DNA of 45,905 nucleotides from a virus (IMGVR_UViG_643348547_000010:1-45905); one strand, 5' to 3'. Positions 9,671 through 40,905 are shown, counted from the stretch's first letter. A program made the numbers and translations. Notes: a model not told the origin generated them from the letters alone.

Positions 9671-9687
9671 ATTACCTTTCGGGTAAT
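9671..9687. promoter_or_regulatory. Operator-like 17-bp palindrome (site A)
   Basis: ATTACCTTTCGGGTAAT, intergenic, upstream of 9763 gene. Confidence 0.5.
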
Positions 9688-9762
9688 TTGCAAAACGTGC
9701 TGGATAGCAAACAAATTATTTGTTACTGTATAAACATACAGTTATTGCATGGAGAAGATAAG

Positions 9763-10020
9763 ATGCAGCAGTATCACTATCCACTGGAAGACGGATTTAC
9801 CGAAAGGATTCACACGCCGGGAGGCGTCAGGTCACTGGTGGAGGGATCGCACTTGATGAAATTACTCCGGGATCTCGATAAGGATGGATTTAATGTCGAT
9901 GGCCCACTTGCCGAACTGACTGCACTGATTAACTACGTCACCAGCTCACAGATGTCTATGCAGGATCTGCAAACACATCTCGACTATTGTGCCGAACAAT
10001 TACGAAAACAAACCAGATAA
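9763..10020 (+). CDS. Small protein paralogous to the C-terminal domain of the antirepressor at 10338-10994
   Basis: Start at internal ATG with GGAGAAG RBS; about 45 percent identity by eye to the last 80 aa of the AntA-like protein (shared ...IH-P-GV..L.E.S.LM.LL..L..DG..V.G..AELT....Y...LQTH..Y). Confidence 0.5.
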   Translation: MQQYHYPLEDGFTERIHTPGGVRSLVEGSHLMKLLRDLDKDGFNVDGPLAELTALINYVTSSQMSMQDLQTHLDYCAEQLRKQTR

Positions 10021-10023
10021 GGT

Positions 10024-10052
10024 TTGCAATTACCAAATAGAGTGCTTATATT
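10024..10052 (+). promoter_or_regulatory. Sigma70-like promoter TTGCAA-N17-TATATT
   Basis: Hexamers at 10024-10029 and 10047-10052; operator site B begins 27 bp after the -35 start. Confidence 0.45.
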
Positions 10053-10067
10053 TACCTTTGCGGTAAA
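10051..10067. promoter_or_regulatory. Operator-like 17-bp palindrome (site B)
   Basis: TTTACCTTTGCGGTAAA overlapping the -10/+1 of the promoter above. Confidence 0.5.
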
Positions 10068-10180
10068 TTTACATCGCACTCCTCTTGTGCCATAGTAATC
10101 GGGCACTGGCAAAATCCAGTGCCGGGATTGGTCTCCCGGATTACTAAGTGGCGCATACCACGCCAGACGTGGTTTTTTTA
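10059..10180 (+). ncRNA. Candidate structured leader or small RNA upstream of antirepressor gene
   Basis: About 120 nt between promoter/operator and an intrinsic terminator; contains stem-loops CACTGG...CCAGTG and CCGGGA...TCCCGG; no convincing ORF (track ORF 10119-10310 starts at GTG with no RBS). Confidence 0.3.
10158..10180 (+). terminator. Intrinsic terminator
   Basis: CCACGCCAGACGTGG followed by T7. Confidence 0.6.
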
Positions 10181-10337
10181 TGCGTATAGCACAGTCATGC
10201 CAGAATTATGGTGGGCTGAATGGGGGTCCGAAAGGACGCCGGTACCACTTAGGCCGGTAAGACCAACTCCGTTCAGTTCACCACCATCTGATTGGTCTCA
10301 GCGGTGGTGATGTAATTCGCTAAGTGGAGACGCCATC

Positions 10338-10994
10338 ATGAACGCTCAACTCATCCCCGTATTCAACGGCACTATCGCCAACGAAACCACTCTTCTCGTT
10401 AATGCTCGCGATTTACATACTTTTCTTGGGGTAGGTAAACGCTTTGCATCGTGGATTACAGAACGCATTGCTGAATATGGTTTCGTTGAAAATCAGGACT
10501 ATATTTTGGTTTCCCCAAATCGGGAAATCAAAGGTCGAGGAGGCGATCGCCGTAGCAAAGACTATCACCTCACCCTCGATACGGCCAAAGAAACTGCGAT
10601 GGTCGAGCGCAACGAAAAAGGCCGCCAGATACGCCGATACTTCATTGAATGCGAGAAACGTTTAAGACAACAAGAAACAAAGGTGGAGAAGGTCTTGTCA
10701 GGCTTCATGCCCGCCATTATGGAGGCGATCAAACTGGAAGACAAAAAAGAATACAGTGCCCCACTGAAGCCAGGCTACCGTAGCCTGATTCATTCGCCGT
10801 CTGGTGTTCTCGGCCTGACGGAGAACTCACTGCTGATGAATCTGCTGAACCAGTTGCAGGAAGACGGGCACGATGTATCGGGCGCGGCGGCGGAACTGAC
10901 CACCATGTTCTGCTACATCGTCGGTGTGAGCAAATGCCTGCGTGATATCCAGACGCACGCGGAGTACATCAACGACAAGGCAGGATTCTTCTGA
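10338..10994 (+). CDS. Antirepressor, AntA-like N-terminal domain plus C-terminal domain
   Basis: N-terminal DLHTFLGVGKRFASWITERIAEYGFVENQDYIL pattern typical of AntA/AntB-type antirepressors; RBS GGAG upstream. Confidence 0.7.
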   Translation: MNAQLIPVFNGTIANETTLLVNARDLHTFLGVGKRFASWITERIAEYGFVENQDYILVSPNREIKGRGGDRRSKDYHLTLDTAKETAMVERNEKGRQIRRYFIECEKRLRQQETKVEKVLSGFMPAIMEAIKLEDKKEYSAPLKPGYRSLIHSPSGVLGLTENSLLMNLLNQLQEDGHDVSGAAAELTTMFCYIVGVSKCLRDIQTHAEYINDKAGFF

Positions 10995-11039
10995 CAGAAC
11001 GGCGGCACAGGGATGTGCCTTTAAATAATTCTGTACAGA

Positions 11040-11068
11040 TTGCAGACTGGGGGTGAATAGCGTACTAT
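11040..11068 (+). promoter_or_regulatory. Sigma70-like promoter TTGCAG-N17-TACTAT
   Basis: Hexamers at 11040-11045 and 11063-11068; site C begins 27 bp after the -35 start. Confidence 0.4.
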
Positions 11069-11083
11069 TACCTCACGGGTGAT
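11067..11083. promoter_or_regulatory. Operator-like 17-bp palindrome (site C)
   Basis: ATTACCTCACGGGTGAT. Confidence 0.45.
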
Positions 11084-11119
11084 CCATAGCGATTAGGCAC
11101 CGATACAGGAGGAGCCCAC

Positions 11120-11152
11120 ATGAGAAAATTTGACGAGTACGAAGGCGTTTAA
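11120..11152 (+). other. Mini-ORF (10 codons, MRKFDEYEGV) with strong Shine-Dalgarno, between two operator sites
   Basis: AGGAGGA at 11107-11113, ATG at 11120, stop TAA at 11150-11152. Confidence 0.25.
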
Positions 11153-11167
11153 CATTCGGATAGTTCA

Positions 11168-11184
11168 TTTACCCTAATGGTAAA
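11168..11184. promoter_or_regulatory. Operator-like 17-bp palindrome (site D)
   Basis: TTTACCCTAATGGTAAA. Confidence 0.5.
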
Positions 11185-11223
11185 TCCCGCTTAAAGAAGC
11201 ATCTATATATTATGAGGTGATGT

Positions 11224-11859
11224 ATGCCACAACAACTGCTGAATCCGGCAAAGGTAACTGAGGTTTTCGCTCATCTGAACGAAACTCCAGACAACCGCGC
11301 CCTGTATTCAGAGTTAGTGAACGGCAACGATGTCACATCTGATGTCAAAGGCGTTTCTCTGGCTCCTGGATACCGCGTTGTCCGTGTAGACGATCGTAAG
11401 AAAGGCGAGATTCCACAGGCGCACTTTGAACTGTCATTGATAAATGACCTCACCGAAGAGGTAGTGTATTACAATCGTGTCATTATCCAGCCTGACAGCT
11501 ATCTTAACTGCCGTCCTGTCACGCAGATATTGGTATGGAGAACCCAGAAGCCTAAGCATCGTGCTGTGCTTCATGATTTCGCCGGCATCATCTTCATGAA
11601 CTACCTCTTGGAACGGTACGATATCATCGTGTCAGATCGCAACCAGACTCATGAAGGCATGTCGTTCTGGCAGGCTCGCATGTATGACGCACTGGAACTT
11701 GGCCTCCACCTCTATGGTTACGACATGATGACATGCGAGCTGATAGAGATGAATAACGAGGAAGAGCTTGAGAAAGGTGAAACCTGGTTGTGGGGTGATG
11801 CGGAAAACTTCCAAAACAGATTGGCCATAATTTCAAAGCATAAGCTGCCAATAAAATAG
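11224..11859 (+). CDS. Hypothetical protein (accessory gene in antirepressor island)
   Basis: 211-aa ORF with RBS (GAGGTGA), followed by a strong terminator; no family recognised. Confidence 0.6.
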   Translation: MPQQLLNPAKVTEVFAHLNETPDNRALYSELVNGNDVTSDVKGVSLAPGYRVVRVDDRKKGEIPQAHFELSLINDLTEEVVYYNRVIIQPDSYLNCRPVTQILVWRTQKPKHRAVLHDFAGIIFMNYLLERYDIIVSDRNQTHEGMSFWQARMYDALELGLHLYGYDMMTCELIEMNNEEELEKGETWLWGDAENFQNRLAIISKHKLPIK

Positions 11860-11865
11860 TTCTTT

Positions 11866-11888
11866 AAGCCCGCGGCGCGGGCTTTTTT
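11866..11888 (+). terminator. Intrinsic terminator
   Basis: AAGCCCGCGGCGCGGGCTTTTTT. Confidence 0.7.
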
Positions 11889-11961
11889 GTGTCTGCGGAT
11901 TCCCGCCCGGGTGGCGGTGGCATTCGTTAAAAACAAGGCCGCGAAAGCGGCCTGTGACATG

Positions 11962-12342
11962 TCACGCAACGCAATTATTACCGCGCCATGTAACATTTTT
12001 AATAATCTTATCAGCACCAAACTCAACGTAAACAGAGCAACTGAAATGGAGTGTATAACCGCCATCAGTTGTTGCGTATGTGTTTGAATATATAGTATTA
12101 CCAATTAGATTAGACGTAGTATTATACGTTGTGGTTTGTGGTACGTTATAACTACCAGAGCTTGAGTAAACATACACTCTGTTTCCATCTGGAGATGTAA
12201 GCTCTCCCTGAGGATACCCCCACTGCTGAACCATTGCGTCTATACTCTGCCCGCGCCACGTAAGCATATTTCTTTCAAACTGTGCAGCTGACTGGCATCC
12301 AACGAGAAGCATAAATCCAAAAATCAAAAATACTTTTCTCAT
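11962..12342 (-). CDS. Lipoprotein (possible superinfection-exclusion type accessory gene)
   Basis: Start at MRKVFLIFGFMLLVGCQSAA (lipobox LLVGC); Ser/Thr/Asn-rich mature part. Confidence 0.55.
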   Translation of the reverse strand: MRKVFLIFGFMLLVGCQSAAQFERNMLTWRGQSIDAMVQQWGYPQGELTSPDGNRVYVYSSSGSYNVPQTTTYNTTSNLIGNTIYSNTYATTDGGYTLHFSCSVYVEFGADKIIKNVTWRGNNCVA

Positions 12343-12389
12343 AATTACCCCTATCATGGAAAAACAGCACCAATCCACAAATTAACTAG

Positions 12390-12578
12390 TTATTTTATTA
12401 TTCTTCCGAACAATACAATTCCGAATACTACAAAGCCGAACCATGCCGCTGCACGCAACAGAGATTCCAATTGAAACCCATTTTTATCAAAATGTATGAA
12501 TAGCATAAAAACGCTGCACATATTAGTACAATAAAAGTTATTTGAACCATCATATCTCCTTTTATTGCGGAGTGACAT
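12390..12578 (-). CDS. Small hypothetical protein with C-terminal hydrophobic segment
   Basis: 62-aa ORF only; overlaps the end of the upstream gene. Confidence 0.3.
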   Translation of the reverse strand: MSLRNKRRYDGSNNFYCTNMCSVFMLFIHFDKNGFQLESLLRAAAWFGFVVFGIVLFGRIIK

Positions 12579-14232
12579 CCTGTGGTCGCCACCAGTATGT
12601 CTGGTTAAACTCTTTCTTCGAACGTTGCTCCATTTTACGCAAATAGCCTGGTGAAAAATACTCCTGCATCTGGTTAAAGATCATGTGATCGAGAGCCGCC
12701 TTCAAGTACCAGAGATTCGCACCAGGCATCAAACCTTTCCCCAGCTTCACCAGATCACCACCAGTCTGCTCACTCTTCCCTTCCACAGCATTTAACGGTA
12801 TGCCCTGAGCAATCTTCACTACGTCATCAACCAGACCAGCTACCGGGCCAAGCATCGACGCCAGCGCGCCGCTTCCGTACCTAGTGTGATCTGACAATAA
12901 AAAGTCACCGTAAAGGCCAAGACCACCACCTTTCAGTAGAGCACCAAGCCAGAATTTTGCGGCATCTTCTCCTGTCATCTCTCGAGGATTACGACCAGAC
13001 GCAAGGTCGTTAAGTTGCTGCGACAAAGCGCCAAGAATGGTCGTACTGGCAATAAACGTCGCAATATATGCCGCACGCCCACCAGCAGACGGCATACCCA
13101 TAGCGCGTGACCAGTGACGCATAACAACCGAGATAGGGAACGATTTAAACAGGAAAACACTTCTCGTTAATTCACCTTTCCATGTTCCACGCTGAATACC
13201 AGAACCGGTTATCAGTTGCTCACGTGCTCCCGGTGTAATAACAGCCATATCAACTTCTTCAGTTACGGCACCGAGCAGTTTACGCATTGCCTCAAATTTC
13301 ACGCGTTCAGGCTCACCAAGATGTTTAACTGCTGAATCAGGGATACGCATAATGCTTTCCGGTGTCAGCATCGTATTATTACCGTTCCCCCAGTCCTCCT
13401 GTTTCGCCAGCTTCCATACGCTCCAGTCTGTGTCAGTAATCCCTTTGCTTTTCAGGATACGAAAATCAGAGTCATCGAGGCTACGAAGGTCTGGTGTCCG
13501 TGACACTACTTCTCCCAGGCTTCCCATCATGGTTACGCCATAGGCGCGCTTGTGCGCATCTGACCATGCTGTAAGCCCACTGGCACGCATTACCGCCGTT
13601 GCCGCCCAACGAGACACTGACGGCCCCATATTATCCATCGCCCAGCGGTTAACGCTGCCAAGTAGAGATTCCATCGCCAGACCAGCGCGGCGCGCCCGCG
13701 CAAGTTCTGTACGGTTCGTTGGGTCCATAGCTTCAAGCTGGTTGCGGAATAACTGGTTCATTGGAAGGTTGGTAACCTTCGCAGACAGATACATGGTTCC
13801 AAGATCAGAGAACGATGACAGCAACGCGGATCCGAGTCTGCTGGCAACCAGCCAGTTGCGGATATTGTCAGACCATCGCGCGATGTGCGGATTCGCTACA
13901 GGCTGTGTCTTTCCGGAAATAAAGTTGTACAGATTCTCTGTGTTGTTCGCCAGCCGCTCGACTTTACCGGTTTTACTCGGGTTAGCTGTTGCCGTTTCTG
14001 CCTTCACCTGATCAAGAAGAGAGCGGAAAACATGATCGGGGTTTGGGCCATATGTTTCCACCAGTGCAATATCTTTACTGATACCTTCCAGGTGACCGAC
14101 CATGATTTCCCATAGAGAGCGATCGCCATAAAGTTGCTGATATTGCAGATAGGAATCTGCATCTTTGAAATGTATCTGTCGTGATGCATTACCACGGTTA
14201 GCACGTGCGCCGGAAATTCGCATTCCGGTATC
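12562..14232 (-). pseudogene. Internal virion (ejection/core) protein gene, C-terminal portion, separated from its 5' part by IS629 copies
   Basis: 557 codons of phage sequence downstream of IS629 left end; the track ORF (12562-14325) starts inside the IS. Confidence 0.7.
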
Positions 14233-14286
14233 TGAACCGCCCCGGGAATCCTGGAGACTAAACTTCCTGAGAAAGAGGTAAACAGG

Positions 14287-14613
14287 ATGACTAAAAATAC
14301 TCGTTTTTCCCCCGAAGTCCGTCAACGGGCAGTCCGTATGGTTCTGGAAAGTCAGAGCGAATATGACTCACAATGGGCGACAATTTGTTCCATTGCTCCA
14401 AAGATTGGCTGTACGCCGGAGACTCTGCGTGTCTGGGTTCGCCAGCATGAGCGGGATACCGGGGGCGGTGATGGAGGGCTCACCACCGCTGAACGTCAGC
14501 GTCTGAAAGAGCTGGAACGTGAAAATCGTGAACTGCGCCGCAGTAACGATATCCTTCGCCAGGCTTCCGCTTATTTTGCGAAGGCGGAGTTCGACCGCCT
14601 CTGGAAAAAATGA
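14287..14613 (+). CDS. IS629 OrfA
   Basis: 108-aa ORF, same protein as 422-748 apart from one residue. Confidence 0.9.
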
Positions 14614-15500
14614 TGCCACTGCTGGATAAGCTGCGTGAGCAGTACGGGGTCGGACCGCTATGCAGCGAACTGCATATTGCCCCGTCAACGTATTACCACT
14701 GTCAGCAACAGCGACATCATCCGGATAAACGCAGTGCCCGTGCGCAGCGCGATGACTGGCTGAAGAAAGAGATACAGCGCGTATACGATGAAAATCACAA
14801 GGTATACGGTGTGCGTAAAGTCTGGCGTCAGTTGTTACGGGAAGGTATCAGAGTGGCCAGATGCACTGTGGCACGTCTCATGGCGGTTATGGGACTTGCC
14901 GGTGTTCTCCGGGGTAAAAAGGTCCGTACGACCATCAGCCGGAAAGCCGTTGCCGCAGGCGACCGCGTAAACCGTCAGTTCGTGGCAGAACGACCTGACC
15001 AGCTGTGGGTGGCTGATTTTACTTACGTCAGCACATGGCGGGGCTTCGTCTATGTGGCGTTCATCATTGATGTGTTTGCCGGATACATCGTGGGGTGGCG
15101 GGTCTCATCGTCCATGGAAACGACATTCGTGCTGGATGCACTGGAGCAGGCGTTATGGGCCCGTCGACCGTCCGGCACGGTCCATCACAGTGATAAAGGT
15201 TCTCAGTATGTATCGCTGGCCTACACACAGCGGCTTAAGGAAGCCGGATTACTGGCATCAACAGGAAGTACAGGCGACTCGTATGACAACGCGATGGCGG
15301 AGAGCATCAATGGTCTTTACAAAGCGGAGGTAATACACCGTAAGAGCTGGAAAAACCGTGCAGAAGTGGAACTGGCCACACTCACGTGGGTGGACTGGTA
15401 TAACAATCGACGATTGCTGGAAAGGCTGGGCCATACTCCTCCGGCAGAAGCAGAAAAAGCTTATTATGCTTCCATCGGAAACGATGATCTGGCAGCCTGA
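14610..15500 (+). CDS. IS629 OrfB (DDE transposase catalytic part)
   Basis: 296-aa ORF overlapping orfA in the -1 frame as in IS3-family elements. Confidence 0.9.
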
Positions 15501-15542
15501 GTTCACAGATAAAACACTCTCCAGGAAACCCGGGGCGGTTCA

Positions 15543-15896
15543 GTCGCCTGCGGCAACGGCTTTCCGGCTGATGGTCGTACGGACCTTTTTACCCCGGAGA
15601 ACACCGGCAAGTCCCATAACCGCCATGAGACGTGCCACAGTGCATCTGGCCACTCTGATACCTTCCCGTAACAACTGACGCCAGACTTTACGCACACCGT
15701 ATACCTTGTGATTTTCATCGTATACGCGCTGTATCTCTTTCTTCAGCCAGTCATCGCGCTGCGCACGGGCACTGCGTTTATCCGGATGATGTCGCTGTTG
15801 CTGACAGTGGTAATACGTTGACGGGGCAATATGCAGTTCGCTGCATAGCGGTCCGACCCCGTACTGCTCACGCAGCTTATCCAGCAGTGGCATCAT
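15543..15896 (-). pseudogene. IS629 orfB, truncated
   Basis: Encodes first 117 aa of OrfB then runs into the neighbouring IS end. Confidence 0.8.
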
Positions 15897-16219
15897 TTTT
15901 TCCAGAGGCGGTCGAACTCCGCCTTCGCAAAATAAGCGGAAGCCTGGCGAAGGATATCGTTACTGCGGCGCAGTTCACGATTTTCACGTTCCAGCTCTTT
16001 CAGACGCTGACGTTCAGCGGTGGTGAGCCCTCCATCACCGCCCCCGGTATCCCGCTCATGCTGGCGAACCCAGACACGCAGAGTCTCCGGCGTACAGCCA
16101 GTCTTTGGAGCAATGGAACAAATTGTCGCCCATTGTGAGTCATATTCGCTCTGACTTTCCAGAACCATACGGACTGCCCGTTGACGGACTTCGGGGGAAA
16201 AACGAGTATTTTTAGTCAT
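15893..16219 (-). CDS. IS629 OrfA (in truncated copy)
   Basis: 108-aa ORF matching the other orfA copies. Confidence 0.85.
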
Positions 16220-16273
16220 CCTGTTTACCTCTTTCTCAGGAAGTTTAGTCTCCAGGATTCCCGGGGCGGTTCA

Positions 16274-17076
16274 GTAAGCTTATTCAGCCCACCAGTAGCG
16301 ATCGTGTTATAAGCCTCTCCAAGAAATGAAGACAACTCGGCATCGTTCATCAGTTGTCCATCGGCTCGGATATAATATTTGCGATCCAGCTTACCTATAA
16401 CATCGCTAACCCACTTATCCTTTGATACTGCCCCAACCTTTTCCATAGAATGATGTTGAGGGATCCCCCAGTTTTCGAGATAGCCAATGTCCCCACCAGC
16501 ATCATTAAACCGGCGGCGCAGCAGCTCTGTAACTTCTCTCCACGCCTTAGCACCGTTTCTTGCTTTAGCATTGCCAGTATTTTGCCCCCGCATTTCATAT
16601 ACCAGGTCACGTACGCCCGCTTCATCTTCAAACAGACCAAAAAAGCGAGGATCAACTGCTTCGAATGCCTCCTGCAATTGACTCAATGCATAATCACGGG
16701 TGGCTTTTGTTCTGGATTCAACAGAGAGGAAATTAGATTTACCGTCTGCATTAAAAGCTATAGTACGGTTAAGAGCGCCAAGTTTCCCATCAGCCCCTTG
16801 ATAGCTATTGATAAATTTATCCAATCTCTGACGTGCGGCTATAGTGAGAGCCACACGACGTTTCTTTAATGTCGCTTCTCGCTGTAATTCTTCAGATGCC
16901 AATTGTGCTGCACGATACAACCGTTCTGATTCGGAAAGTTGTCGCCACGACATCGGGTCATCACGAGCAATGGAGCGCATATTTCGATAAATGCGGTCTT
17001 CAATGTTCTGTATTTCTCGCGCCGTTAACGTGCGCTGCGCCGCCTGCTGGACCGCTTGTATACATTCCTGTCTCAT
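16274..17076 (-). pseudogene. Internal virion (ejection/core) protein gene, N-terminal portion, truncated by IS629
   Basis: Track ORF 16225-17076 reads from phage sequence into the IS end (last 16 residues IS-derived). Confidence 0.7.
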
Positions 17077-17081
17077 TTAAT

Positions 17082-30587: not shown

Positions 30588-30655
30588 ATCAATGACTCCG
30601 TACGCAATTAAATTATTACCAATTTAACCATATATGATTTATTTATCGTAGATAG

Positions 30656-30684
30656 TTGACATTTAACGCACGAATTATTACCTT
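30656..30684 (+). promoter_or_regulatory. Possible promoter for the tRNA transcript (TTGACA at 30656-30661)
   Basis: Consensus -35 hexamer; -10 is weak and overlapped by operator site E. Confidence 0.3.
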
Positions 30685-30693
30685 TCAGGTAAG
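30677..30693. promoter_or_regulatory. Operator-like 17-bp palindrome (site E)
   Basis: ATTACCTTTCAGGTAAG. Confidence 0.45.
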
Positions 30694-31014: not shown

Positions 31015-31091
31015 GTGGCATTAGCTCACTTGGACAGAGCAACCGCCTTCTAAGCGGTTGGTCGCAGGTTCGAATCCTGCATGCCACGCCA
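31015..31091 (+). tRNA. tRNA-Arg (anticodon UCU), phage-encoded
   Basis: Cloverleaf by hand: acceptor GTGGCAT/ATGCCAC, D-arm GCTC/GAGC, anticodon stem ACCGC/GCGGT with loop CTTCTAA, T-arm GCAGG-TTCGAAT-CCTGC, discriminator G, CCA; sequence differs from host argU. Confidence 0.85.
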
Positions 31092-33296: not shown

Positions 33297-33889
33297 TGAT
33301 TACCATCCTGACGTTCTTTGAGTCGCTTCCTGGCTGCTGCTATGCGATCAGCAATTGTCACATTCACATTAACATCCAGACGTTCTTTGAACGCGTTGAC
33401 ATCAACATGCTTACCAATCAGCTCAAGGTTCTTCACCTTGTCAGGCCATTTAATTTTTTTGAGGATTGTCTCTATCGAATCCTCGTTCATGTTCATGATG
33501 GTCGATGACAGATCAAAGCCACTAAGCGTAGTGCGCCAGATTTTCGGCCACTCACGGATTGGTTTAAGGCTCCCATCGTCGTTGAGGATGTCGATCACGT
33601 CCATCTGGTCGATCTCCACCAGGCGCATGAGAACGTAATCAGCACTGACGCGCATTCGTTTGTTGCGCTCCTCCATCAACTCGGCAATCCGTTTTTGAAT
33701 GCGTTCATCGCGCATCATGACACTGGCTTTAACTGCCGCTGTATTTGGGGAGAATCCTGCGTTAATCGCTGCCTGAGTCTGGTTTTCAGGCGTTTTGATG
33801 TATGACTGGCAATAAGCCTCCTGCATTGCTGTTAGTGGCTTAAATTGCGTTGATTTGCGTTTATAGGTTTTAGGTTCAGCAGGCATCAT
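33293..33889 (-). CDS. Terminase small subunit
   Basis: Motif QEAYCQSYIKTPENQTQAAINAGFS typical of terminase small subunits; start moved to ATG at 33889 because a terminator hairpin lies inside the longer track ORF. Confidence 0.7.
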   Translation of the reverse strand: MMPAEPKTYKRKSTQFKPLTAMQEAYCQSYIKTPENQTQAAINAGFSPNTAAVKASVMMRDERIQKRIAELMEERNKRMRVSADYVLMRLVEIDQMDVIDILNDDGSLKPIREWPKIWRTTLSGFDLSSTIMNMNEDSIETILKKIKWPDKVKNLELIGKHVDVNAFKERLDVNVNVTIADRIAAARKRLKERQDGNQ

Positions 33890-33905
33890 AACCACCGTGG
33901 TAATA

Positions 33906-33922
33906 GTTACCGTTGTGGTAAT
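33906..33922. promoter_or_regulatory. Operator-like 17-bp palindrome (site N) upstream of terS
   Basis: GTTACCGTTGTGGTAAT, preceded by GGTAATAGTTACC. Confidence 0.45.
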
Positions 33923-33932
33923 AGTACCATGC

Positions 33933-33958: not shown

Positions 33959-34007
33959 AGTATTCAAAACCCATCAAATTCATCATGCATAATCTACTCG
34001 TGACATG

Positions 34008-34346
34008 TCACACTATTAATTTCGTTTCATGCCAGCCTTTAGTCACCCAGCATTGCGAGTCACCATTACACGGGCATGAATTAACTGGAACTCTCTCGCC
34101 GCACTTACCGCAACATTTTCTGCTGATCGATTTTATACGCCCGCGCACGCGTGCATCATCCTGGCGGATCAGCAGCGCGATGTACTCGGCCATTTCATAG
34201 GGATCGCGACCAGGGCGCCGGGCGGCGCAGTTCCGCGCCAGCATTTCCTGCTCCTGCTTATCCAGCACCAGTTCAATTTTGCGCTCACCAGATGCAGCTT
34301 GTCTGGCTCTCTGAGCGGCTTTGCGCTCTGCTGCTGATTTAGCCAT
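34008..34346 (-). CDS. Hypothetical Cys-rich protein (possible zinc-binding regulator)
   Basis: 112 aa; basic N-terminus, C-terminal CCGKCG...CPC...C cluster. Confidence 0.5.
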   Translation of the reverse strand: MAKSAAERKAAQRARQAASGERKIELVLDKQEQEMLARNCAARRPGRDPYEMAEYIALLIRQDDARVRGRIKSISRKCCGKCGERVPVNSCPCNGDSQCWVTKGWHETKLIV

Positions 34347-34701
34347 TCTGATTTTCCTGCATCATGAGAAATACAATCATGGCGGCGCGGAGAACATTTT
34401 CATGCTCATGCTCCCAAATAGGGTTGGCAGAAGCACCGTGCAAACCGCTTTCGTTCCAGTCCCAGAGAATGTTAACTCCGTTATCAGCAATAATCGGCCA
34501 TGCATCTGCTGGGTTTGCGCATGGGTTAAAGGATCCGCGCTCAACTTCTACTTCAACTGCGTCTCCGTTTACAATGTCTCCCACAAATGAGATAAACACC
34601 ATCGCGCCATTCTCACCTTCTTTGTAATCCGGTGATCCGTTATGAATGGCTTCGAATACCGCCACGTTAATTTCAAAATCACTTAACTGTGAATAGTCCA
34701 T
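34339..34701 (-). CDS. Hypothetical acidic protein
   Basis: Start at MDYSQLSDFEIN... overlapping upstream stop (ATGA). Confidence 0.5.
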   Translation of the reverse strand: MDYSQLSDFEINVAVFEAIHNGSPDYKEGENGAMVFISFVGDIVNGDAVEVEVERGSFNPCANPADAWPIIADNGVNILWDWNESGLHGASANPIWEHEHENVLRAAMIVFLMMQENQNG

Positions 34702-35414
34702 CACTTCACCTCCTGCGGCGGTTCTGGTAGCGGCATCCAGTGTGATGGTATCCACGACGCACCAGGTATTACCCACCCATCATTAGCGTCAGGATGCCCC
34801 GGGATGTAAGTCGCCCATTTCATTCGCCAGTCACCTTTCCTGTCAAACTCCCTGGCAACAAGAACGGCTGTTTTGGTATCCGGCATTCGCTCACTACAGC
34901 TTATCCAACCATCCGGAGTTACCGGAGAGCTGGTTGACGCTTCCGGGATTTTCCGAAAATTATTGGTTGACGAATCTTTATTTTCCCGAAAGTTTCCGGA
35001 CTGAAGCATGGCTTCGCGGCAATCGTTCCAGCCTGTAGCGTATGCAGCCGCTTTGCTGCTGCCTTCAACTGGCGCATCCTGCCAATACATTTCATCCGGC
35101 ACTACCGGCGCTGGCAAGGCAGCGTGATAGTAGAGTGGCATAGTTTTGTACAGTGGTTCGCCAGGACTTCCGTCAACCTGATTCCATTCTTCAACCCAGG
35201 CATCAACAACCGCTTTGCTGGTTGATACATGTTCTTCTGAATCTACATTTTGTCCTGATATACAGAACATAACTGCCTCTGCTTCCAGCGATGCCAGAGC
35301 AATTCGTGCCAGTTCTTCCGCTTCTTCTGCTGGCAGTACAACGTTGCTACCAGGTCCGTATGTTTCGCGCCACTGCTTGATTGTCAGCAGTCGCTCTTTG
35401 GTTATAGTGGTCAT
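34701..35414 (-). CDS. DUF551-type phage protein
   Basis: C-terminus ...VLVAREFDRKGDWRMKWATY...WMPLPEPPQ matches the DUF551 pattern common in enterobacterial prophages. Confidence 0.6.
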   Translation of the reverse strand: MTTITKERLLTIKQWRETYGPGSNVVLPAEEAEELARIALASLEAEAVMFCISGQNVDSEEHVSTSKAVVDAWVEEWNQVDGSPGEPLYKTMPLYYHAALPAPVVPDEMYWQDAPVEGSSKAAAYATGWNDCREAMLQSGNFRENKDSSTNNFRKIPEASTSSPVTPDGWISCSERMPDTKTAVLVAREFDRKGDWRMKWATYIPGHPDANDGWVIPGASWIPSHWMPLPEPPQEVK

Positions 35415-35424
35415 TTGTTAATCC

Positions 35425-36180
35425 TTAAACTGCTAGTTGCAATTGCATTTCAAAGCGGTCGCGTTGTTCACAATACGCAAGAGAACCAGGGCTATTGTGT
35501 GCCTCAATCCGTTCTACCATTAATGCTGCTCGTGTCTCTTTACTTGCAGGTGCATAAGCCCCAGACCAGGCTTTATCAATACCGATGTTTCGAGCGACGT
35601 TCGTACTATCTGCGCTGGCTAAGGGTAATTTTGTGAATATCAGCGGATTTAACATGCGCAACCCATGTAGTTTCGTAACCGGCTGACCATACTCATCAAC
35701 AATGTGACGAATCAGGTCTTTCATTCTGGCTACCGCAAGAGTTGGGCGCTTTACGTCATAGTCGCCACAACTACCGATAGCCACTCGCGGAAACTCATTG
35801 CACAAATGAATAAATCGCTCGTCACTTTCATTCATGTGCCACACTGGAACGCCAGCTAGTTTTCCGTGAGGCCACTCATTCAGAAGCGCATCATTTTCTT
35901 CCTCTCCGCCATCAATAACATCAGGGATAATGGCAAAATCGAATCCTGGGTGATTCTTCCAGCGAGCAACAAACTCGTAGTAATCGCTCCAGTCGATTTT
36001 GTTTTTGCCAGCTGCTTTCCAGGCGGTGAATGCACCGTTGTCCAGCGCGAACGACTGACAGTATTCAGCCGCGAGATTGATCTGGCCTGAATGCGCAAAA
36101 CTGATAAACGCATGTCGCCCTTTCCATGCTCTCATGGCGCACGTATCAGGAGTAATAGGCCCACCGTGATAGTGAATCAT
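35425..36180 (-). CDS. Hypothetical enzyme-like protein (possible TGT/DpdA-like fold)
   Basis: 251-aa ORF; motifs LDNGAF, VAIGSCGD and DSTNVARN loosely resemble the three conserved blocks of tRNA-guanine transglycosylases; low confidence in function. Confidence 0.5.
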   Translation of the reverse strand: MIHYHGGPITPDTCAMRAWKGRHAFISFAHSGQINLAAEYCQSFALDNGAFTAWKAAGKNKIDWSDYYEFVARWKNHPGFDFAIIPDVIDGGEEENDALLNEWPHGKLAGVPVWHMNESDERFIHLCNEFPRVAIGSCGDYDVKRPTLAVARMKDLIRHIVDEYGQPVTKLHGLRMLNPLIFTKLPLASADSTNVARNIGIDKAWSGAYAPASKETRAALMVERIEAHNSPGSLAYCEQRDRFEMQLQLAV

Positions 36181-36181
36181 C

Positions 36182-36748
36182 TCACTCTCCTTTGATGCGA
36201 ATGCCAGCGACGCGTAATGCGTGTTCTAGGTCAATCAGGTAAAGCCAACTGCCATTTTCTTTAGGTATCATGACATGTCGCTCATCTGCATTTATCGGGT
36301 GTCCATATCGAAGGTCGTAGCGAGTCGGTAATTGAACTTCCCGCGCTTCCAGTTCAGCAATACGCTTCTCTGCGGCCTCTGCCCTGCATTGTTCCCGTTG
36401 GAACATTTTGTGGGTGCGGTCGAGCGCCTCAAGTCTGGCTGCTGATGTTTTCTCTTCTGCTTCAAGCTCAACGCGCAGCTTCCCAACCGTAAGCGCAATA
36501 TCCTCGTTCTCCTGGTCGCGGCGTTTGATGTATTGCTGGTTTCTTTCCCGTTCATCCAGTAGTGCCAGCACGGTTTCTGGTCCGGTCAGAAATTTGAAGG
36601 CATTGAGCGCATCAATATCCACACCGTAATCTTTAAGTTCCTGTTCACTTAACAAATCATCATCAGCTGGCAACATTAACAGGCGTTCCATTGCTGGAAT
36701 TGCACGTTCCGCCACCTCACGCAGTGACTGGTAATTAATTTCGCTCAC
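36182..36748 (-). CDS. Hypothetical coiled-coil protein
   Basis: 188-aa ORF, early region. Confidence 0.5.
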   Translation of the reverse strand: MSEINYQSLREVAERAIPAMERLLMLPADDDLLSEQELKDYGVDIDALNAFKFLTGPETVLALLDERERNQQYIKRRDQENEDIALTVGKLRVELEAEEKTSAARLEALDRTHKMFQREQCRAEAAEKRIAELEAREVQLPTRYDLRYGHPINADERHVMIPKENGSWLYLIDLEHALRVAGIRIKGE

Positions 36749-37320
36749 TGGTTGCCTCCTTTGCGAAGCTGTTCAGCAATACTTACGCATATCTCTGCGC
36801 CTCTAATCAGCCCCGGAACGTTCTTGTTTGGCCCAACTTCACCATCAACAAAATCAATCATCGCGTTACGAGCCATATCCACGCCCTGCGCCCGCACTTC
36901 AGCCAGGCATTTGCGAAACTCGGAAACGTACTGTTCGACGCTCATTCCCCAGCTAAGTGGACATTCATTGAATGTTTCGCCTTCGTGCTCTTCATCAGGT
37001 AGCTCTTTGGTAAAGAACTCACGTTCAATGGCGTGGAGTGTGTCAGCAAAACGACGTAAGTTACTCAAACCTGTCGTAATGGAGAATTCAGGAGCATCAC
37101 ATCCGACGCCCATCTGCTGATAAACGGCGGTTTTGAAGGCCTTAAGCCCAGCATTCTCCGCCGCCAGCGCATTAGCACGCACCAGTTGCACTTCCAGTTG
37201 CGTTGCCAAATCGCTGATCAGCTTTGCCACACTGCGCATATCAACGGCACCACATTCTGCTTTCAGTTCCGAAGCCATCTCATGCCCGGCGGAAACTAAC
37301 CCTTTGATATTACTTTCCAT
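36745..37320 (-). CDS. Hypothetical protein
   Basis: 191-aa ORF, early region. Confidence 0.5.
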   Translation of the reverse strand: MESNIKGLVSAGHEMASELKAECGAVDMRSVAKLISDLATQLEVQLVRANALAAENAGLKAFKTAVYQQMGVGCDAPEFSITTGLSNLRRFADTLHAIEREFFTKELPDEEHEGETFNECPLSWGMSVEQYVSEFRKCLAEVRAQGVDMARNAMIDFVDGEVGPNKNVPGLIRGAEICVSIAEQLRKGGNQ

Positions 37321-37381
37321 CTTTACCCTCGCTTATCCACATAACTTATTGATTACATTGATAACTAAAAAGATCGTCGAT

Positions 37382-37726
37382 TCAGAACTCTTCGATGTTC
37401 CAGCCACCACCTGCTTTCTTTGGCTTAACCGTTACCCCGATGATTCGGAACGGATACTGATCTGCGGCGACTTTGGTTTTCACCCTGGCGTCGTCGGTCC
37501 AGAAACCTTTCACTTCGTGCAGTTCCATCTCTCCGGTGGCGAGCATCACAGCGAAATCTGGCGTATAGAACGTGTTGTCAGCTAACCGCAGCTTGATACC
37601 CTCGAATCGATACCAGGCGATTTCCCCTGCACGTTTACGCAGCTCAAGGTGCTGGCAATACGCAGATTCAGTTTTGTTCATCTGGCCTGTTTTGAGTCGA
37701 CCAAGAGCCTGTATCTGTTTTTTCAT
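37382..37726 (-). CDS. Small PD-(D/E)xK-like protein (DUF1064-like, possible resolvase/nuclease)
   Basis: 114 aa with D...E.K arrangement (FYTPDF ... ELHEVKG). Confidence 0.5.
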   Translation of the reverse strand: MKKQIQALGRLKTGQMNKTESAYCQHLELRKRAGEIAWYRFEGIKLRLADNTFYTPDFAVMLATGEMELHEVKGFWTDDARVKTKVAADQYPFRIIGVTVKPKKAGGGWNIEEF

Positions 37727-37728
37727 GA

Positions 37729-37745
37729 TTTACCTCTAAGGTAAT
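37729..37745. promoter_or_regulatory. Operator-like 17-bp palindrome (site O), overlapping RBS of 37382-37726 gene
   Basis: TTTACCTCTAAGGTAAT. Confidence 0.45.
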
Positions 37746-37790
37746 TAAAAACCACATAAGACACGAAATCAATAGATTTTAGAATATTTT

Positions 37791-37807
37791 ATTACCCGCC
37801 AGGTAAT
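37791..37807. promoter_or_regulatory. Operator-like 17-bp palindrome (site F)
   Basis: ATTACCCGCCAGGTAAT. Confidence 0.5.
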
Positions 37808-37843
37808 CATTGAAACGTAAAAAAATGCGCTATCGCGCTGGTA

Positions 37844-38626
37844 TTACTTGATAAATCCTGCCGCCTTTCCCCGCCTGTATTCCTCCATCAGCCACTGCGC
37901 CGGTGTTATTCCCCCCAGGGTGGCGGCGTTAGGCATGCACCCGAAACTTCGCCCTGGTGGATGGTAAACGTCTCTCCCTGTATCCGGAGGTGTACTCATG
38001 GGTTCTGGCTTTGCCTGTATGCTGATCACCGGATCGGGTATCTGCTGTCCGGAAGCCACCTTTTTCGCCCAATCATCGAGCAGCCTGCACGCGTGTTTCT
38101 CAACCTCAATCTCGCTAAGCTGGCGCTGATACATTGCACGGCGGGTATCACATACGACCCAGTACATAACCGGATGTCGCCACGGGAATCTTTCGGGACC
38201 ACCAGGATATAAACTTTTTTCCTTGCTGTACCGGTGAAACTCCGCCATCACATCGTCAATGGTGACGCCAAGAACCATCTTGCTGTCTTTACACCACTTG
38301 ATAAATTGCCCTGGCGACGGCCAGAACGGAGACTCACTGGCGCGGGCGTGGCGCATACCAGCGTTAACCTGTTCCATTGTTGTGATCCCATTCTCCAGAA
38401 ACGCAAGCATCCATTGTTTTCGAAATTCGTTTAGCTTTCCTTGCTCGCTGATAGCAGCGATGCTGCCTGGAAATGCAGCCTGTAACTGGACAAACATTTC
38501 GTTGAAAATTCTTGCAACCTGCTCCTTCTTTGCCCTTTCATCGTCAGCAGAAGCAACCGCCGTCGAGTGGTCATGCCCACCACGAAAGCGATCGTACTCA
38601 TTAAGAAGTTCTGGAGTTGATTTCAT
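37844..38626 (-). CDS. Replication protein P-like (helicase loader)
   Basis: Blocks ENGITTMEQVNAGMR and PFWPSPGQF closely match lambda P; start taken at MKSTPELL. Confidence 0.8.
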   Translation of the reverse strand: MKSTPELLNEYDRFRGGHDHSTAVASADDERAKKEQVARIFNEMFVQLQAAFPGSIAAISEQGKLNEFRKQWMLAFLENGITTMEQVNAGMRHARASESPFWPSPGQFIKWCKDSKMVLGVTIDDVMAEFHRYSKEKSLYPGGPERFPWRHPVMYWVVCDTRRAMYQRQLSEIEVEKHACRLLDDWAKKVASGQQIPDPVISIQAKPEPMSTPPDTGRDVYHPPGRSFGCMPNAATLGGITPAQWLMEEYRRGKAAGFIK

Positions 38627-39434
38627 CCCACACCTCATCTATCCAGTCAGTGTTATGCCAGTCAAGGCTCTTTCTGACTTCACCTGATTTCTGTCTACAG
38701 AACTGGATGCGCCTTGCCAGCTTCTGCTCCCACTGTGCCTGATGGTATGCCTTACCCTCAGCCATCCAGTAAATTCTGAACTCTGCAAGTTCCTGTGCCG
38801 TTGGCAGACTGTCCAGGTAGATTCCCTGCAATGAGCTTTTCCGAAGAAAGTCATCTGATGGCTGCCATTGTTCATGCATGACAAATTTGCCTAATTGCCC
38901 TGGCCCACCAGGAGGAACAAAGTTATTCATCACGGCGTTGTTTGCGCCGGGGTCATGAGGAACAGAATCCCCGGTTTTTGTCCTGCTCTCCCTCTCTTGG
39001 TTAAATGACTGGTTATATGACTGGTTCTGGATCCCGTTTTTGGGATCATTCAACATCCCGTTTTTGGGATCATTCAACATCCCGTTTTTGGGTATATTCC
39101 CGTTTTCGGTAACATTACCGTTTTCGGGTTCATTGCCCCCCTCCCGGTTGCCTTTAATGTTCCCGTTTTTGGTTATATTAAGAGAGAAAACCCGCACTCT
39201 TTTTGTCGCTCCCTTTCTCTCTCCGGTATCTGAAATAAGCCCCATTTTCATGAGCGATATAAGCCCGGCCTGCACGGTTTTTTTATTCAGGCAAGTGTCT
39301 TTAACGAGGCGTTCTATGCTGGGGTAGCAGAGGTTATATTCATCGGCTCTGTCAGCCATCGAGAGCAGTATGAGCTTTAATGATGAGCTACCTGGATCTG
39401 TCTCCCAGGCCCAATCTGTTGCATGTCTGCTCAT
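38601..39434 (-). CDS. Replication initiator O-like protein with internal ori iterons
   Basis: N-terminal winged-helix-like region (LKLILLSMADRADEYNLCYPSIERLVKD...), Asn/Gly-rich repeat region encoded by DNA iterons. Confidence 0.7.
   Translation of the reverse strand: MSRHATDWAWETDPGSSSLKLILLSMADRADEYNLCYPSIERLVKDTCLNKKTVQAGLISLMKMGLISDTGERKGATKRVRVFSLNITKNGNIKGNREGGNEPENGNVTENGNIPKNGMLNDPKNGMLNDPKNGIQNQSYNQSFNQERESRTKTGDSVPHDPGANNAVMNNFVPPGGPGQLGKFVMHEQWQPSDDFLRKSSLQGIYLDSLPTAQELAEFRIYWMAEGKAYHQAQWEQKLARRIQFCRQKSGEVRKSLDWHNTDWIDEVWDEINSRTS
39031..39176. repeat. Origin iterons inside the O-like gene
   Basis: ATCCCGTTTTTGGGATCATTCAAC repeated in tandem twice, followed by four degenerate CCCGTTTT(T/C)GG units. 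Confidence 0.6.
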
Positions 39435-39449
39435 GATTAATCTCCGCTA

Positions 39450-39650
39450 TCAGCTTGAGTGTTGTGGGGAGGAATTAATCATGATCTGCTTAATCTCTGC
39501 CCTGATGCGACGGTTTGATTCCATGGTGCACTCAACACAGTGTCCGTTGTAAACCCAGCGTTCACTGTCATGTCCATGCTTACATGGTTTTCCGGTGTAG
39601 TAGCGTTTAAGTCCGCGCTTTGCGGCATCAATACGTGTAATGATTTCCAT
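39450..39650 (-). CDS. Small zinc-ribbon-like protein (CII-position gene)
   Basis: Start at MEIITRIDAAKRGLKRYYTGKPCKHGH...CVEC; two Cys pairs. Confidence 0.45.
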   Translation of the reverse strand: MEIITRIDAAKRGLKRYYTGKPCKHGHDSERWVYNGHCVECTMESNRRIRAEIKQIMINSSPQHSS

Positions 39651-39729
39651 GGTAAGCCCTGTTATTAGTATTGGGATTACGGTCATTTTGTGCTGACACA
39701 AAAAAAAGATCAACCAGATTTGGTTTTTT

Positions 39730-39746
39730 ATTACCTTTGAGGTACG
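39730..39746. promoter_or_regulatory. Operator-like site (site G, weaker right half)
   Basis: ATTACCTTTGAGGTACG. Confidence 0.35.
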
Positions 39747-39756
39747 AATAGATATG

Positions 39757-39778
39757 AAAAGACCGCCGGGTGGCGGTC
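39757..39778 (-). terminator. Intrinsic terminator after Cro-like gene (tR1-like position)
   Basis: Minus-strand hairpin GACCGCC-ACCC-GGCGGTC followed by TTTT. Confidence 0.45.
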
Positions 39779-39800
39779 TACAGAGGGTTGTAGCTGGATA

Positions 39801-40031
39801 TCATGAGTAGAAGAAGTATGCCAGTTCTGCTTTTGAGCGCAGCCATTGTCTTGTTTTACAGGCTTTAAAAAGCCCATTCATCAATACCTTACCTGGCATT
39901 TTGCGCTTACCTGTTAAGTGAGTCTGGATATAGTGACTCGTCGTTCCGGCTTCCTGTGCGAAGGCTTCACGCTCATCCGGAGTAAGTGCAAGCCAGTGCT
40001 TTTTGAAATCGAAATGTCCGTTATCGCTCAT
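39801..40031 (-). CDS. Cro-like HTH regulator
   Basis: 76 aa; HTH-like segment LTPDEREAFAQEAGTTSHYIQTHLTGKR; first gene of leftward early operon, divergent from repressor. Confidence 0.6.
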   Translation of the reverse strand: MSDNGHFDFKKHWLALTPDEREAFAQEAGTTSHYIQTHLTGKRKMPGKVLMNGLFKACKTRQWLRSKAELAYFFYS

Positions 40032-40066
40032 AGCTATTGCCTGATATTTATTTCAGATAATAAATA

Positions 40067-40083
40067 TTCACCCATAAGGTAAC
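40067..40083. promoter_or_regulatory. Operator-like site H in the divergent immunity intergenic region
   Basis: TTCACCCATAAGGTAAC. Confidence 0.45.
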
Positions 40084-40097
40084 AAAAATCAAGGATA

Positions 40098-40114
40098 GTT
40101 ACCTACGGGGTGCA
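40098..40114. promoter_or_regulatory. Operator-like site I (degenerate right half)
   Basis: GTTACCTACGGGGTGCA. Confidence 0.35.
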
Positions 40115-40131
40115 TTTACCTGTTGGGTAAT
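40115..40131. promoter_or_regulatory. Operator-like site J
   Basis: TTTACCTGTTGGGTAAT. Confidence 0.5.
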
Positions 40132-40185
40132 ATTGCTTTAAATTGAATCATCTACTGATTCATATATGAGGCGATTTTCCAGAAA

Positions 40186-40770
40186 ATGAAAAGTATCCAG
40201 GACGTCCGCAGGCAAAATCTCAACGACTTGATCGACCGTGAATTCAATGGTGTTCAGACGCGGATGGCAGAAAAACTTGGAACTCAGGCAAATCTGGTAA
40301 ACCGCTGGGCTCTTGGCAAGAAGGTTATCGGCGACCAGGTTGCACGAAAAATTGAAGCTGCCGCCAATAAACCCCGTAACTGGCTTGATATTGATCGTTC
40401 GCTTTCTCAGGAGGGTTTTCAGCCTGTCGGCCCGAGCGATATAGGTCAGCTGGCGGCTCACAACCTGGAACGCTGGATGAGCGAAAGCCGCGACCTTTCA
40501 ACGCAGGGAAAACTTCACCGCGCATCCGGCGTCGCCCAGGTGACAATCAGTCGCCTGTTAAACAATGAGGTCAGCGTTTCCATTTCCACCCTGGAGAATG
40601 TTGCATCCGCATTCGGGCGTCACGGATATGAACTACTGATTCACCCGCACGACCCTGCGACTATCAACTATGACCGCTCGCGCTACGCATTGTTACCCGA
40701 AACCGAGAAAGCAAAGATCGAAAGTTACATTGAATTTGTCATCAACCAGAACGAAAAAAACAAACAATAA
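40186..40770 (+). CDS. Immunity repressor candidate: double-HTH DNA-binding protein without peptidase domain
   Basis: 194 aa; two Cro/C1-type HTH segments (QTRMAEKLGTQANLVNRWALGKK and VAQVTISRLLNNEVSVSISTLENVASAF); no Ser-Lys S24 motifs; own terminator. Confidence 0.65.
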   Translation: MKSIQDVRRQNLNDLIDREFNGVQTRMAEKLGTQANLVNRWALGKKVIGDQVARKIEAAANKPRNWLDIDRSLSQEGFQPVGPSDIGQLAAHNLERWMSESRDLSTQGKLHRASGVAQVTISRLLNNEVSVSISTLENVASAFGRHGYELLIHPHDPATINYDRSRYALLPETEKAKIESYIEFVINQNEKNKQ

Positions 40771-40791
40771 AATCATACTCTTCAGTAAGTA

Positions 40792-40814
40792 AGCCGCCTT
40801 CTGGCGGCTTTTTT
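40792..40814 (+). terminator. Intrinsic terminator after repressor gene
   Basis: AGCCGCCTTCTGGCGGCT followed by T6. Confidence 0.7.
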
Positions 40815-40826
40815 ATTGCCTATACT

Positions 40827-40843
40827 ATTACCTAATGGGTAAT
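40827..40843. promoter_or_regulatory. Operator-like site K
   Basis: ATTACCTAATGGGTAAT (both half-sites perfect). Confidence 0.5.
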
Positions 40844-40861
40844 TTTTTTAACTCATATCTA

Positions 40862-40890
40862 TTGACATCAAACCAAATACGCATAATTAT
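40862..40890 (+). promoter_or_regulatory. PL-like early promoter (TTGACA at 40862-40867, AT-rich -10 region)
   Basis: Consensus -35; site L begins 27 bp after the -35 start, as at the promoters at 10024 and 11040. Confidence 0.45.
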
Positions 40891-40905
40891 TACCTCAACG
40901 GTAAC
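40889..40905. promoter_or_regulatory. Operator-like site L
   Basis: ATTACCTCAACGGTAAC. Confidence 0.5.

Follow-up and report, generated by a model that had tools for sequence, protein, structure and literature searches.

The stretch IMGVR_UViG_643348547_000010:1-45905, a viral sequence of 45,905 nucleotides that we refer to as a whole as the window, carries a dispersed family of 17-bp palindromes with the consensus ATTACC-N5-GGTAAT. These palindromes are very probably operators at which Rep, the lysogeny repressor of a phiV10/epsilon15-type prophage, binds. The window corresponds to positions 2747065-2792969 of the Escherichia coli IAI39 chromosome at 100% identity, and the prophage (genus Uetakevirus) occupies the window from approximately 4.3 kb rightwards. 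Its integration site is the 3' end of guaA, and it is reversed in orientation relative to the phiV10 record. In the original prediction, the sites were described as a multi-site repressor system rather than a single OL/OR pair, and this description is upheld by their enrichment, their restriction to intergenic DNA, and their conservation at orthologous positions.

The frequency of the motif was compared with that in 100 dinucleotide-preserving shuffles. The exact palindrome occurs three times in the window, against 0.00 expected (0 in 100 shuffles). With up to two mismatches allowed, there are 16 matches, against 1.25 ± 0.95 in the shuffled sequences, none of which reached 16. A position weight matrix derived from 13 sites assigned 14-23 bits to 14 sites, every one of them non-coding, whereas the top coding match reached 11.6 bits; this separation is partly circular because the matrix was built from the sites themselves. 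Fully non-coding 17-mers account for 8.9% of the window, and all 14 strong sites are non-coding (P ~2e-15). The excess over shuffled sequence, the intergenic enrichment, and the outcome of the weight-matrix scan are thus as the original prediction supposed. The matches at 5782, 34655, and 42473 lie inside genes and are low-scoring, in line with chance expectation. Conservation is weak at the outermost base of each half-site (0.43 bit), and the informative core is TTACC-N5-GGTAA; one 17-mer of the family reads ATTACCTAATGGGTAAT.

Among the 14 coordinates listed earlier, 12 (9671, 10051, 11067, 11168, 30677, 33906, 37729, 37791, 39730, 40115, 40827, and 40889) have zero to two mismatches. The site at 40067 has three mismatches yet scores 14 bits, which places it among the strong sites. 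The site at 40098 (four mismatches, 8 bits) falls in the background range; it was dismissed as an independent site on its score and is retained only as a positional orthologue, since epsilon15, SPC32H, and BUCT711 each have a well-matching site at a distance of exactly 17 bp from the one proximal to rep. The list was also incomplete, as the site at 33888, adjoining that at 33906, had been overlooked. The label "tRNA promoter" given to the site at 30677 was rejected on distance and strand: the tRNA-Arg gene (31015-31091, + strand) begins approximately 320 bp away, and the site precedes the gp3-like/portal unit on the - strand. The resulting map of the window is as follows.

9671-9687: perfect candidate Rep operator between the divergent tailspike and ant genes, 39 bp upstream of a LexA box; half-sites invariant in six phages.
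10051-10067: candidate Rep operator overlapping -10/+1 of the 10024 promoter; orthologues at phiV10 20496 and Tyrion 21392.
11067-11083: candidate Rep operator overlapping -10/+1 of the 11040 promoter.
11168-11184: candidate Rep operator; the cargo gene 11224-11859 begins 40 bp downstream.
30677-30693: candidate Rep operator preceding the gp3-like/portal late unit by 90 bp; orthologues in six of six relatives.
33888-33904: candidate Rep operator abutting the terS ATG at 33886.
33906-33922: candidate Rep operator, second of the adjacent pair, between the terminator 33958-33941 and terS.
37729-37745: candidate Rep operator of the DUF1064 unit, overlapping its -10/+1 and its Shine-Dalgarno sequence.
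37791-37807: perfect candidate Rep operator, upstream partner 62 bp from 37729, ending 18 bp before the -35.
39730-39746: candidate Rep operator immediately following the cro-like terminator; the -35 at 39713 lies 16 bp downstream.
40067-40083: candidate O3-like operator (three mismatches, 14 bits) overlapping the cro-side promoter.
40098-40114: degenerate O2-like site (four mismatches, 8 bits), orthologous in position to epsilon15 33357, SPC32H 34406, and BUCT711 6401/6418.
40115-40131: candidate O1-like operator 55 bp upstream of the rep start.
40827-40843: perfect candidate Rep operator, upstream partner ending 18 bp before the -35.
40889-40905: candidate Rep operator overlapping -10/+1 of the 40862 promoter, 62 bp from 40827.

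The sites at 33888 and 33906 are regarded as intergenic because we favour ATG 33886 over TTG 33967 as the start codon of terS. The latter start, given by the Prokaryotic Genome Annotation Pipeline (PGAP) and in phiV10 (224 amino acids), is probably wrong, because the reading frame would cross a rho-independent terminator (33958-33941) and two operators. ATG 33886 agrees with the terS starts of epsilon15 and Tyrion, and the operator pair (18 bp apart) fills the gap between the terminator and this codon. No sigma-70 promoter for terS was found in that gap. Under the PGAP annotation, in which both sites are counted as coding, the intergenic enrichment has P ~1.5e-11. The operator analysis thereby corrects the start of terS.

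A 16th site is located 41-57 bp upstream of the int start codon, just outside the window. This Rep-type site, TATACCTTTAAGGTAAT, lies between int and the attL core at the guaA end and is kept in all six relatives that we compared. Because a conserved site of this type precedes int, the regulon reaches beyond the window.

The relatives scanned were phiV10, epsilon15, SPC32H, Tyrion (Enterobacter), BUCT554 (Enterobacter), and BUCT711 (Klebsiella), which contain 15, 18, 18, 16, 15, and 14 matches to the motif, respectively, with approximately one expected in each genome. The motif occurs at the same ten or so genome positions in the seven Uetakeviruses, and the common positions are at terS, gp3/portal, ant/tailspike, int, the early recombination operon, and rep-cro, after cro, and after the replication genes. 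The sites are therefore kept at orthologous positions in six other Uetakeviruses, a point for which the original prediction had looked to related prophages. In alignments of three intergenic regions, the half-sites TTACC/GGTAA do not vary, the 5-bp spacers do, and the flanks have diverged; the geometry of -35, -10, and operator is fixed. Together with the constant spacing of paired sites described below, this pattern bears the mark of selection on a protein-binding site. The palindrome might instead be the passenger of a duplicated promoter cassette or a compositional accident, and two early promoter regions do share a common layout and the sequence 'ATCTATTGA'. However, such an origin is scarcely credible, given that no shuffled sequence attained the observed count, that the half-sites remain invariant amid diverging spacers and flanks in phages whose Rep proteins are only ~42-45% identical, and that sites are present at terS, int, and portal, where the cassette is absent. 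Recognition by a host transcription factor instead of a phage protein would agree with the presence of the same motif in phages of related hosts (Escherichia, Salmonella, Klebsiella, and Enterobacter), which is all that speaks for it. We know of no E. coli regulator with an ATTACC-N5-GGTAAT consensus, and around the phage immunity region the sites are grouped in the classic layout of three operators; the conservation pattern also contradicts a host factor, which we consider extremely improbable.

Two proteins encoded in the immunity region are candidates for binding to the palindromes.

40186-40770, + strand: rep, lysogeny repressor and proposed binder of all sites (194 amino acids), with homology to 5D50_A.
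39801-40031, - strand: Cro-like helix-turn-helix (HTH) protein, possible second binder at the rep-cro sites (76 amino acids; phrog_35 transcriptional repressor).

The 40186-40770 product had already been named as a candidate binder, and its kinship with a characterised repressor supports that choice. It is 100% identical to phiV10 p40, and in a phmmer search of the PDB its residues 1-190 align with residues 2-197 of SPC32H Rep (5D50_A, E = 4e-42), a full-length homology that takes in the N-terminal, middle, and C-terminal domains; the SPC32H Rep entries are its sole PDB homologues. Identity is ~42% to SPC32H Rep and likewise ~42% to epsilon15 gp38, and between the phiV10-type and epsilon15-type proteins the N-terminal domain is 53% identical and the remainder 37%. 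Although overall identity is only ~42-45%, all seven phages have the hexapeptide NLVNRW unchanged in the N-terminal domain. An invariant hexapeptide in Rep matches an invariant half-site in the DNA, which is consistent with binding by Rep. More distant Rep-like matches (Moraxella and Pseudomonas) have one domain in common only.

In SPC32H Rep, DNA binding is the function of the N-terminal domain, dimerisation that of the middle domain, and tetramerisation and Ant binding that of the C-terminal domain (PMC9986798). The protein binds to palindromic DNA in tetrameric form, and Ant breaks the tetramer up (PMC9638917; PMC9986798). According to a paper from 2023, the structural mechanism of repression by this Rep "has not been extensively characterized" (PMC9986798). 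In a Pfam scan, the Rep of the IAI39 prophage matched HTH-type families only, and neither a Peptidase_S24 autocleavage domain nor an HTH_3 match outside residues 106-147 was found. The earlier description of Rep as a "double HTH" protein is misleading, because the HTH_3 region is the middle dimerisation domain according to the structural literature on SPC32H; the DNA-binding domain is N-terminal.

Two further sources connect the repressor with lysogeny and with the palindrome. The GenBank record of epsilon15 (AY150271) marks seven zero-mismatch copies as "protein_bind: repressor, lysogeny", and these coincide with the seven exact matches in that genome. The ZX5 repressor is reported to be sequence-identical to phiV10 ORF40, and its overexpression abolished free phage, lowered lysis-gene transcripts by >99.9%, and blocked the lytic cycle; no operator was mapped in that study (PMC9782041). 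A search of the literature text for the motif string returned unrelated primer sequences only.

The Cro-like protein could bind the sites instead of Rep, or could also bind a subset of them, such as the rep-cro triple. Its phrog_35 family is annotated as "transcriptional repressor", and its HTH segment AGTTSHYIQ-HLT is as invariant in the seven phages as the motif itself. The gap between the divergent rep and cro-like genes holds three sites, one of them over the cro-side promoter, and shared operators would parallel those of lambda CI and Cro. However, if it occupied every site in the lytic phase, the Cro-like protein would silence early, late, int, and ant units; acting at all sites would be self-defeating, because lytic growth needs the units that it would shut off. 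In addition, the epsilon15 record assigns the sites to the repressor, and overexpression of Rep alone silences the lysis genes (PMC9782041). A role of the Cro-like protein in place of Rep or beside it is less likely than binding by Rep alone; any operators that it shares would most plausibly be those of the rep-cro triple.

Several of the sites stand in a fixed relation to promoter-like elements, which are listed here.

10024-10052, + strand: promoter-like TTGCAA-17-TATATT, driving the isrK-like RNA, the C4-like RNA, and antA.
11040-11068, + strand: promoter-like TTGCAG-17-TACTAT, preceding the cargo gene.
37744-37772, - strand: promoter-like TTGATT-17-TTTAAT; the -35 core TATTGA is invariant in seven phages.
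39685-39713, - strand: promoter-like TTGATC-17-CAAAAT of the replication-gene unit; a weaker call.
TTGTTA at 40085 to TATTAT at 40057, - strand: cro-side promoter-like element, overlapped by the 40067 site.
40862-40890, + strand: early promoter TTGACA-17-AATTAT of the recombination operon.

The rule that the site starts 27 bp after the -35 hexamer, noted earlier for the 10024, 11040, and 40862 promoters, is exact at all three. A fourth promoter, on the - strand, has the same design (-35 TTGATT at 37772-37767, -10 TTTAAT at 37749-37744, and the site at 37729), and at all four the site begins on the last 2 nt of the -10 hexamer. The right arm of the 37729 operator doubles as the Shine-Dalgarno sequence of the DUF1064 gene. 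Two of the four promoters, those at 40862 and 37772, have an additional operator whose end lies 18 bp upstream of the -35, and the centres of the two operators are 62 bp apart. This spacing is found in 13 of 14 pairs in the seven genomes, and the odd one, in BUCT711, is 63 bp. The downstream partner of the 39730 site has decayed. In the gap between rep and the cro-like gene, three sites (40115, the weak 40098, and 40067) are spaced by 17 and 31 bp, with the strong one nearest rep; the corresponding triple of epsilon15 is at 33340, 33357, and 33387.

From these arrangements, we infer that in a lysogen Rep, a putative non-cleavable tetramer with an N-terminal HTH DNA-binding domain, would occupy a site at or near the start of almost every phage transcription unit. 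The units guarded in this manner would be rep/cro (three sites), the early recombination operon, replication, DUF1064/nin-like, terS, gp3/portal, and tailspike/ant, as well as two accessory antirepressor/cargo promoters and, outside the window, int; the same repressor would thus directly gate late, int, and accessory units. Where the operator lies over -10/+1 and the transcription start, bound Rep would block RNA polymerase binding or open-complex formation. Because 62 bp corresponds to about six helical turns and puts both operators on the same face of the DNA, one tetramer may hold the -10/+1 operator and its partner 62 bp upstream together, clamping the promoter in a very small loop. The sites at terS, 30677, 9671, and 39730 may work as roadblocks or by pairing with weak half-sites. 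We hold these details of the mechanism with lower confidence than the assignment of the sites to Rep.

The distribution of the sites was called "stoperator-like" in the original prediction. The term is apt for the dispersed distribution but not for the mechanism. If bound Rep halted RNA polymerase during elongation instead of blocking initiation, like the repressor of mycobacteriophage L5, it would account for the terS pair, which lies between a terminator and an ATG without a convincing sigma-70 promoter, for the 39730 site directly after the cro-like terminator, and for the genome-wide scatter. However, at least four sites start on the -10 of well-formed promoters and cover -10/+1, no strong site lies within a gene or deep in an operon, and the sites cannot be orientation-dependent because they are palindromic. 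Action as stoperators is thus improbable as a general account and fits only the terS pair.

Several points weigh against the assignment to Rep or against the mechanism proposed for it. The sites at 9671, 30677, and 39730 and the terS pair overlap no recognisable sigma-70 core promoter, and for this reason promoter occlusion cannot be the full mechanism. The 62-bp protein-bridged loop required for the putative bridging is tight. The IAI39 prophage has no operator at the lysis cassette (window 6142-6447), whereas five of the six relatives have one, BUCT711 being the exception. The annotation of repressor sites in epsilon15 may be bioinformatic only. Finally, covariation between the recognition helix and the operator, considered as a means of naming the binder, was uninformative: sequence covariation cannot separate Rep from Cro because the motif, NLVNRW of Rep, and the Cro-like HTH are all invariant throughout the genus.

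The remaining components of a Rep-Ant switch are encoded next to the 9671 site.

9726-9741, + strand: LexA box CTGTATAAACATACAG, upstream of ant; CTGT/ACAG arms invariant in six phages.
9763-10020, + strand: ant, small antirepressor of about 86 amino acids, matching 5D50_E (E = 4e-47, ~88% identity).

The ant gene is encoded between the tail genes and the tailspike, at a position orthologous to that of SPC32H ant, and its product (~88% identical to that of SPC32H) is much better conserved than Rep (~42%). Induction would proceed by antirepression, in which the SOS response inactivates LexA, the ant promoter is freed, Ant binds to Rep, and Rep is taken off all of its operators at once. Because a Rep site lies 39 bp upstream of the LexA box, ant may also be under the control of Rep, which would give positive feedback. 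In the six-phage alignment, no hexamer pair that was both convincing and conserved was found for an ant promoter relative to the 9671 site.

Downstream of ant, the 10024 promoter and its operator at 10051 precede a second set of regulatory elements.

10103-10179: isrK-family small RNA (67.7 bits).
10204-10288: C4 antisense RNA (61.2 bits).
10338-10994: AntA/AntB-family antirepressor gene.

This isrK/C4/AntA set is a c4-ant module like that of P1/P7 immI. The AntA-family protein, a second and unrelated antirepressor, would be expressed only after Rep has been removed. The neighbouring cargo gene 11224-11859 (phrog_1349, without a Pfam match) stands behind a Rep-operator promoter, a 10-codon open reading frame (11120-11152), and a second operator at 11168, and it looks like a moron expressed on induction only.

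Superimposed on known systems, the IAI39 prophage corresponds most directly to epsilon15 and SPC32H. Epsilon15 (AY150271) is of the same genus, with the same gene order and an identical palindrome, and it shares the sites upstream of terS, gp3/portal, and the early recombination operon, in the ant/tailspike region, and after the replication genes. In its record, annotation is confined to the seven perfect copies and does not cover the imperfect rep-cro triple, the 62-bp partners, or the int and lysis sites. Compared with epsilon15, the IAI39 prophage has two extra sites in the cargo island (11067 and 11168) and lacks the lysis-cassette site. The Rep-Ant switch of SPC32H (PDB 5D50/5D4Z) includes a homologous Rep, an 88% identical Ant, the same place of ant, and a LexA box upstream of it, and the SPC32H genome carries the same motif at the same positions, while its Rep differs (~42% identical). 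By every sequence feature tested, the IAI39 system belongs to the epsilon15/SPC32H Rep-Ant switch. The system is therefore already known, because the motif and its positions are annotated in epsilon15 and the repressor-antirepressor pair has been structurally solved.

Other temperate phages resemble the IAI39 prophage in part. As in the C1 system of P1, one repressor would serve many dispersed operators, several of them over promoters, and would be opposed by an antirepressor; as in P1 immI, a C4-type antisense RNA and an AntA-family gene stand behind a Rep-operator promoter. The operators of P1 C1 are asymmetric 17-mers with a ATTGCTCTAATAAATTT-type consensus, whereas the IAI39 motif is another, symmetric sequence, and P1 C1 was not returned as a relative of Rep in searches of the PDB and phage records only. 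The stoperators of L5 gp71 are likewise many copies of a short repressor site in short intergenic gaps of both early and late regions. They are asymmetric 13-mers that are oriented with transcription and block elongation, in contrast to the IAI39 sites, which are two-fold symmetric and at least four of which lie on promoter -10/+1. Lambda OR/OL also consists of 17-bp two-fold symmetric sites, with three between divergent repressor and cro-like genes. Unlike the lambda repressor, Rep has no S24 autocleavage domain, and an Ant homologue and a LexA box are found instead; the IAI39 operators also guard late, int, and accessory units, and the half-site spacing differs.

Relative to the epsilon15 annotation, the full map with its imperfect sites, the fixed 62-bp pairing, and the single specificity throughout the genus may be additions, parts of which have possibly been published. 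It is conceivable, though rather doubtful, that the 62-bp promoter clamp and the genus-wide single operator specificity, taken jointly, have been undescribed so far. Because seven Uetakeviruses from four host genera keep both the operator and NLVNRW, genus-wide cross-immunity is predicted; a shared specificity, if true, would mean cross-immunity where groups of temperate phages usually diversify. One immunity specificity and a fixed 62-bp geometry of paired operators are accordingly predicted for all Uetakeviruses. The map provides a complete set of candidate operators, including previously unannotated imperfect sites, for prophages of the phiV10 type, which often occur in pathogenic E. coli. 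A full repressor regulon could be recovered from one window by sequence alone, although little new biology is added.

A second motif, CATATATGGTT (core palindrome CCATATATGG), occurs in three copies in the window, against 0.2 expected.

6202-6212, - strand: late motif.
9632-9642, - strand: late motif.
30626-30636, - strand: late motif.

In phiV10, SPC32H, and Tyrion, this motif is located exactly 9 bp upstream of a -10-like hexamer before the lysis cassette, the tailspike, and gp3/portal. The 9-bp spacing holds in the IAI39 prophage at the tailspike and gp3/portal but not at the lysis cassette. It may act at late promoters as a -30 element or as a site for an activator. The -10-like elements of the candidate late promoters of portal and tailspike (30615-30631 and 9621-9637) contain a perfect Rep half-site, GGTAAT, on the gene strand. 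The centre of the portal quasi-site is exactly 62 bp from that of the full site at 30677, and the tailspike quasi-site is 50 bp from the 9671 site, approximately one helical turn less. Between tailspike and ant (window 9617-9623), six phages share an unchanged block, TATTACC...AACC.(T/C)ATATG, in which the late motif is joined to the Rep half-site.

The gene adjoining this region encodes the tailspike.

6448-9567: K1 endosialidase tailspike.

The K1 endosialidase gene stands in place of the tailspike/O-antigen module. The homologue of the phiV10 virion protein p20 (12562-17076) is interrupted by two elements of the insertion sequence (IS) family IS3 at 14287-16219. The prophage is probably defective, because this large virion gene is split by the IS3 copies; its regulatory genes are intact. 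On the host side (window 1-4124), yfgI is broken by an IS3 element that itself holds a group II intron, the parts of which are as follows.

1834-3342: ltrA of the group II intron.
3346-3432: Rfam intron domain of the group II intron.

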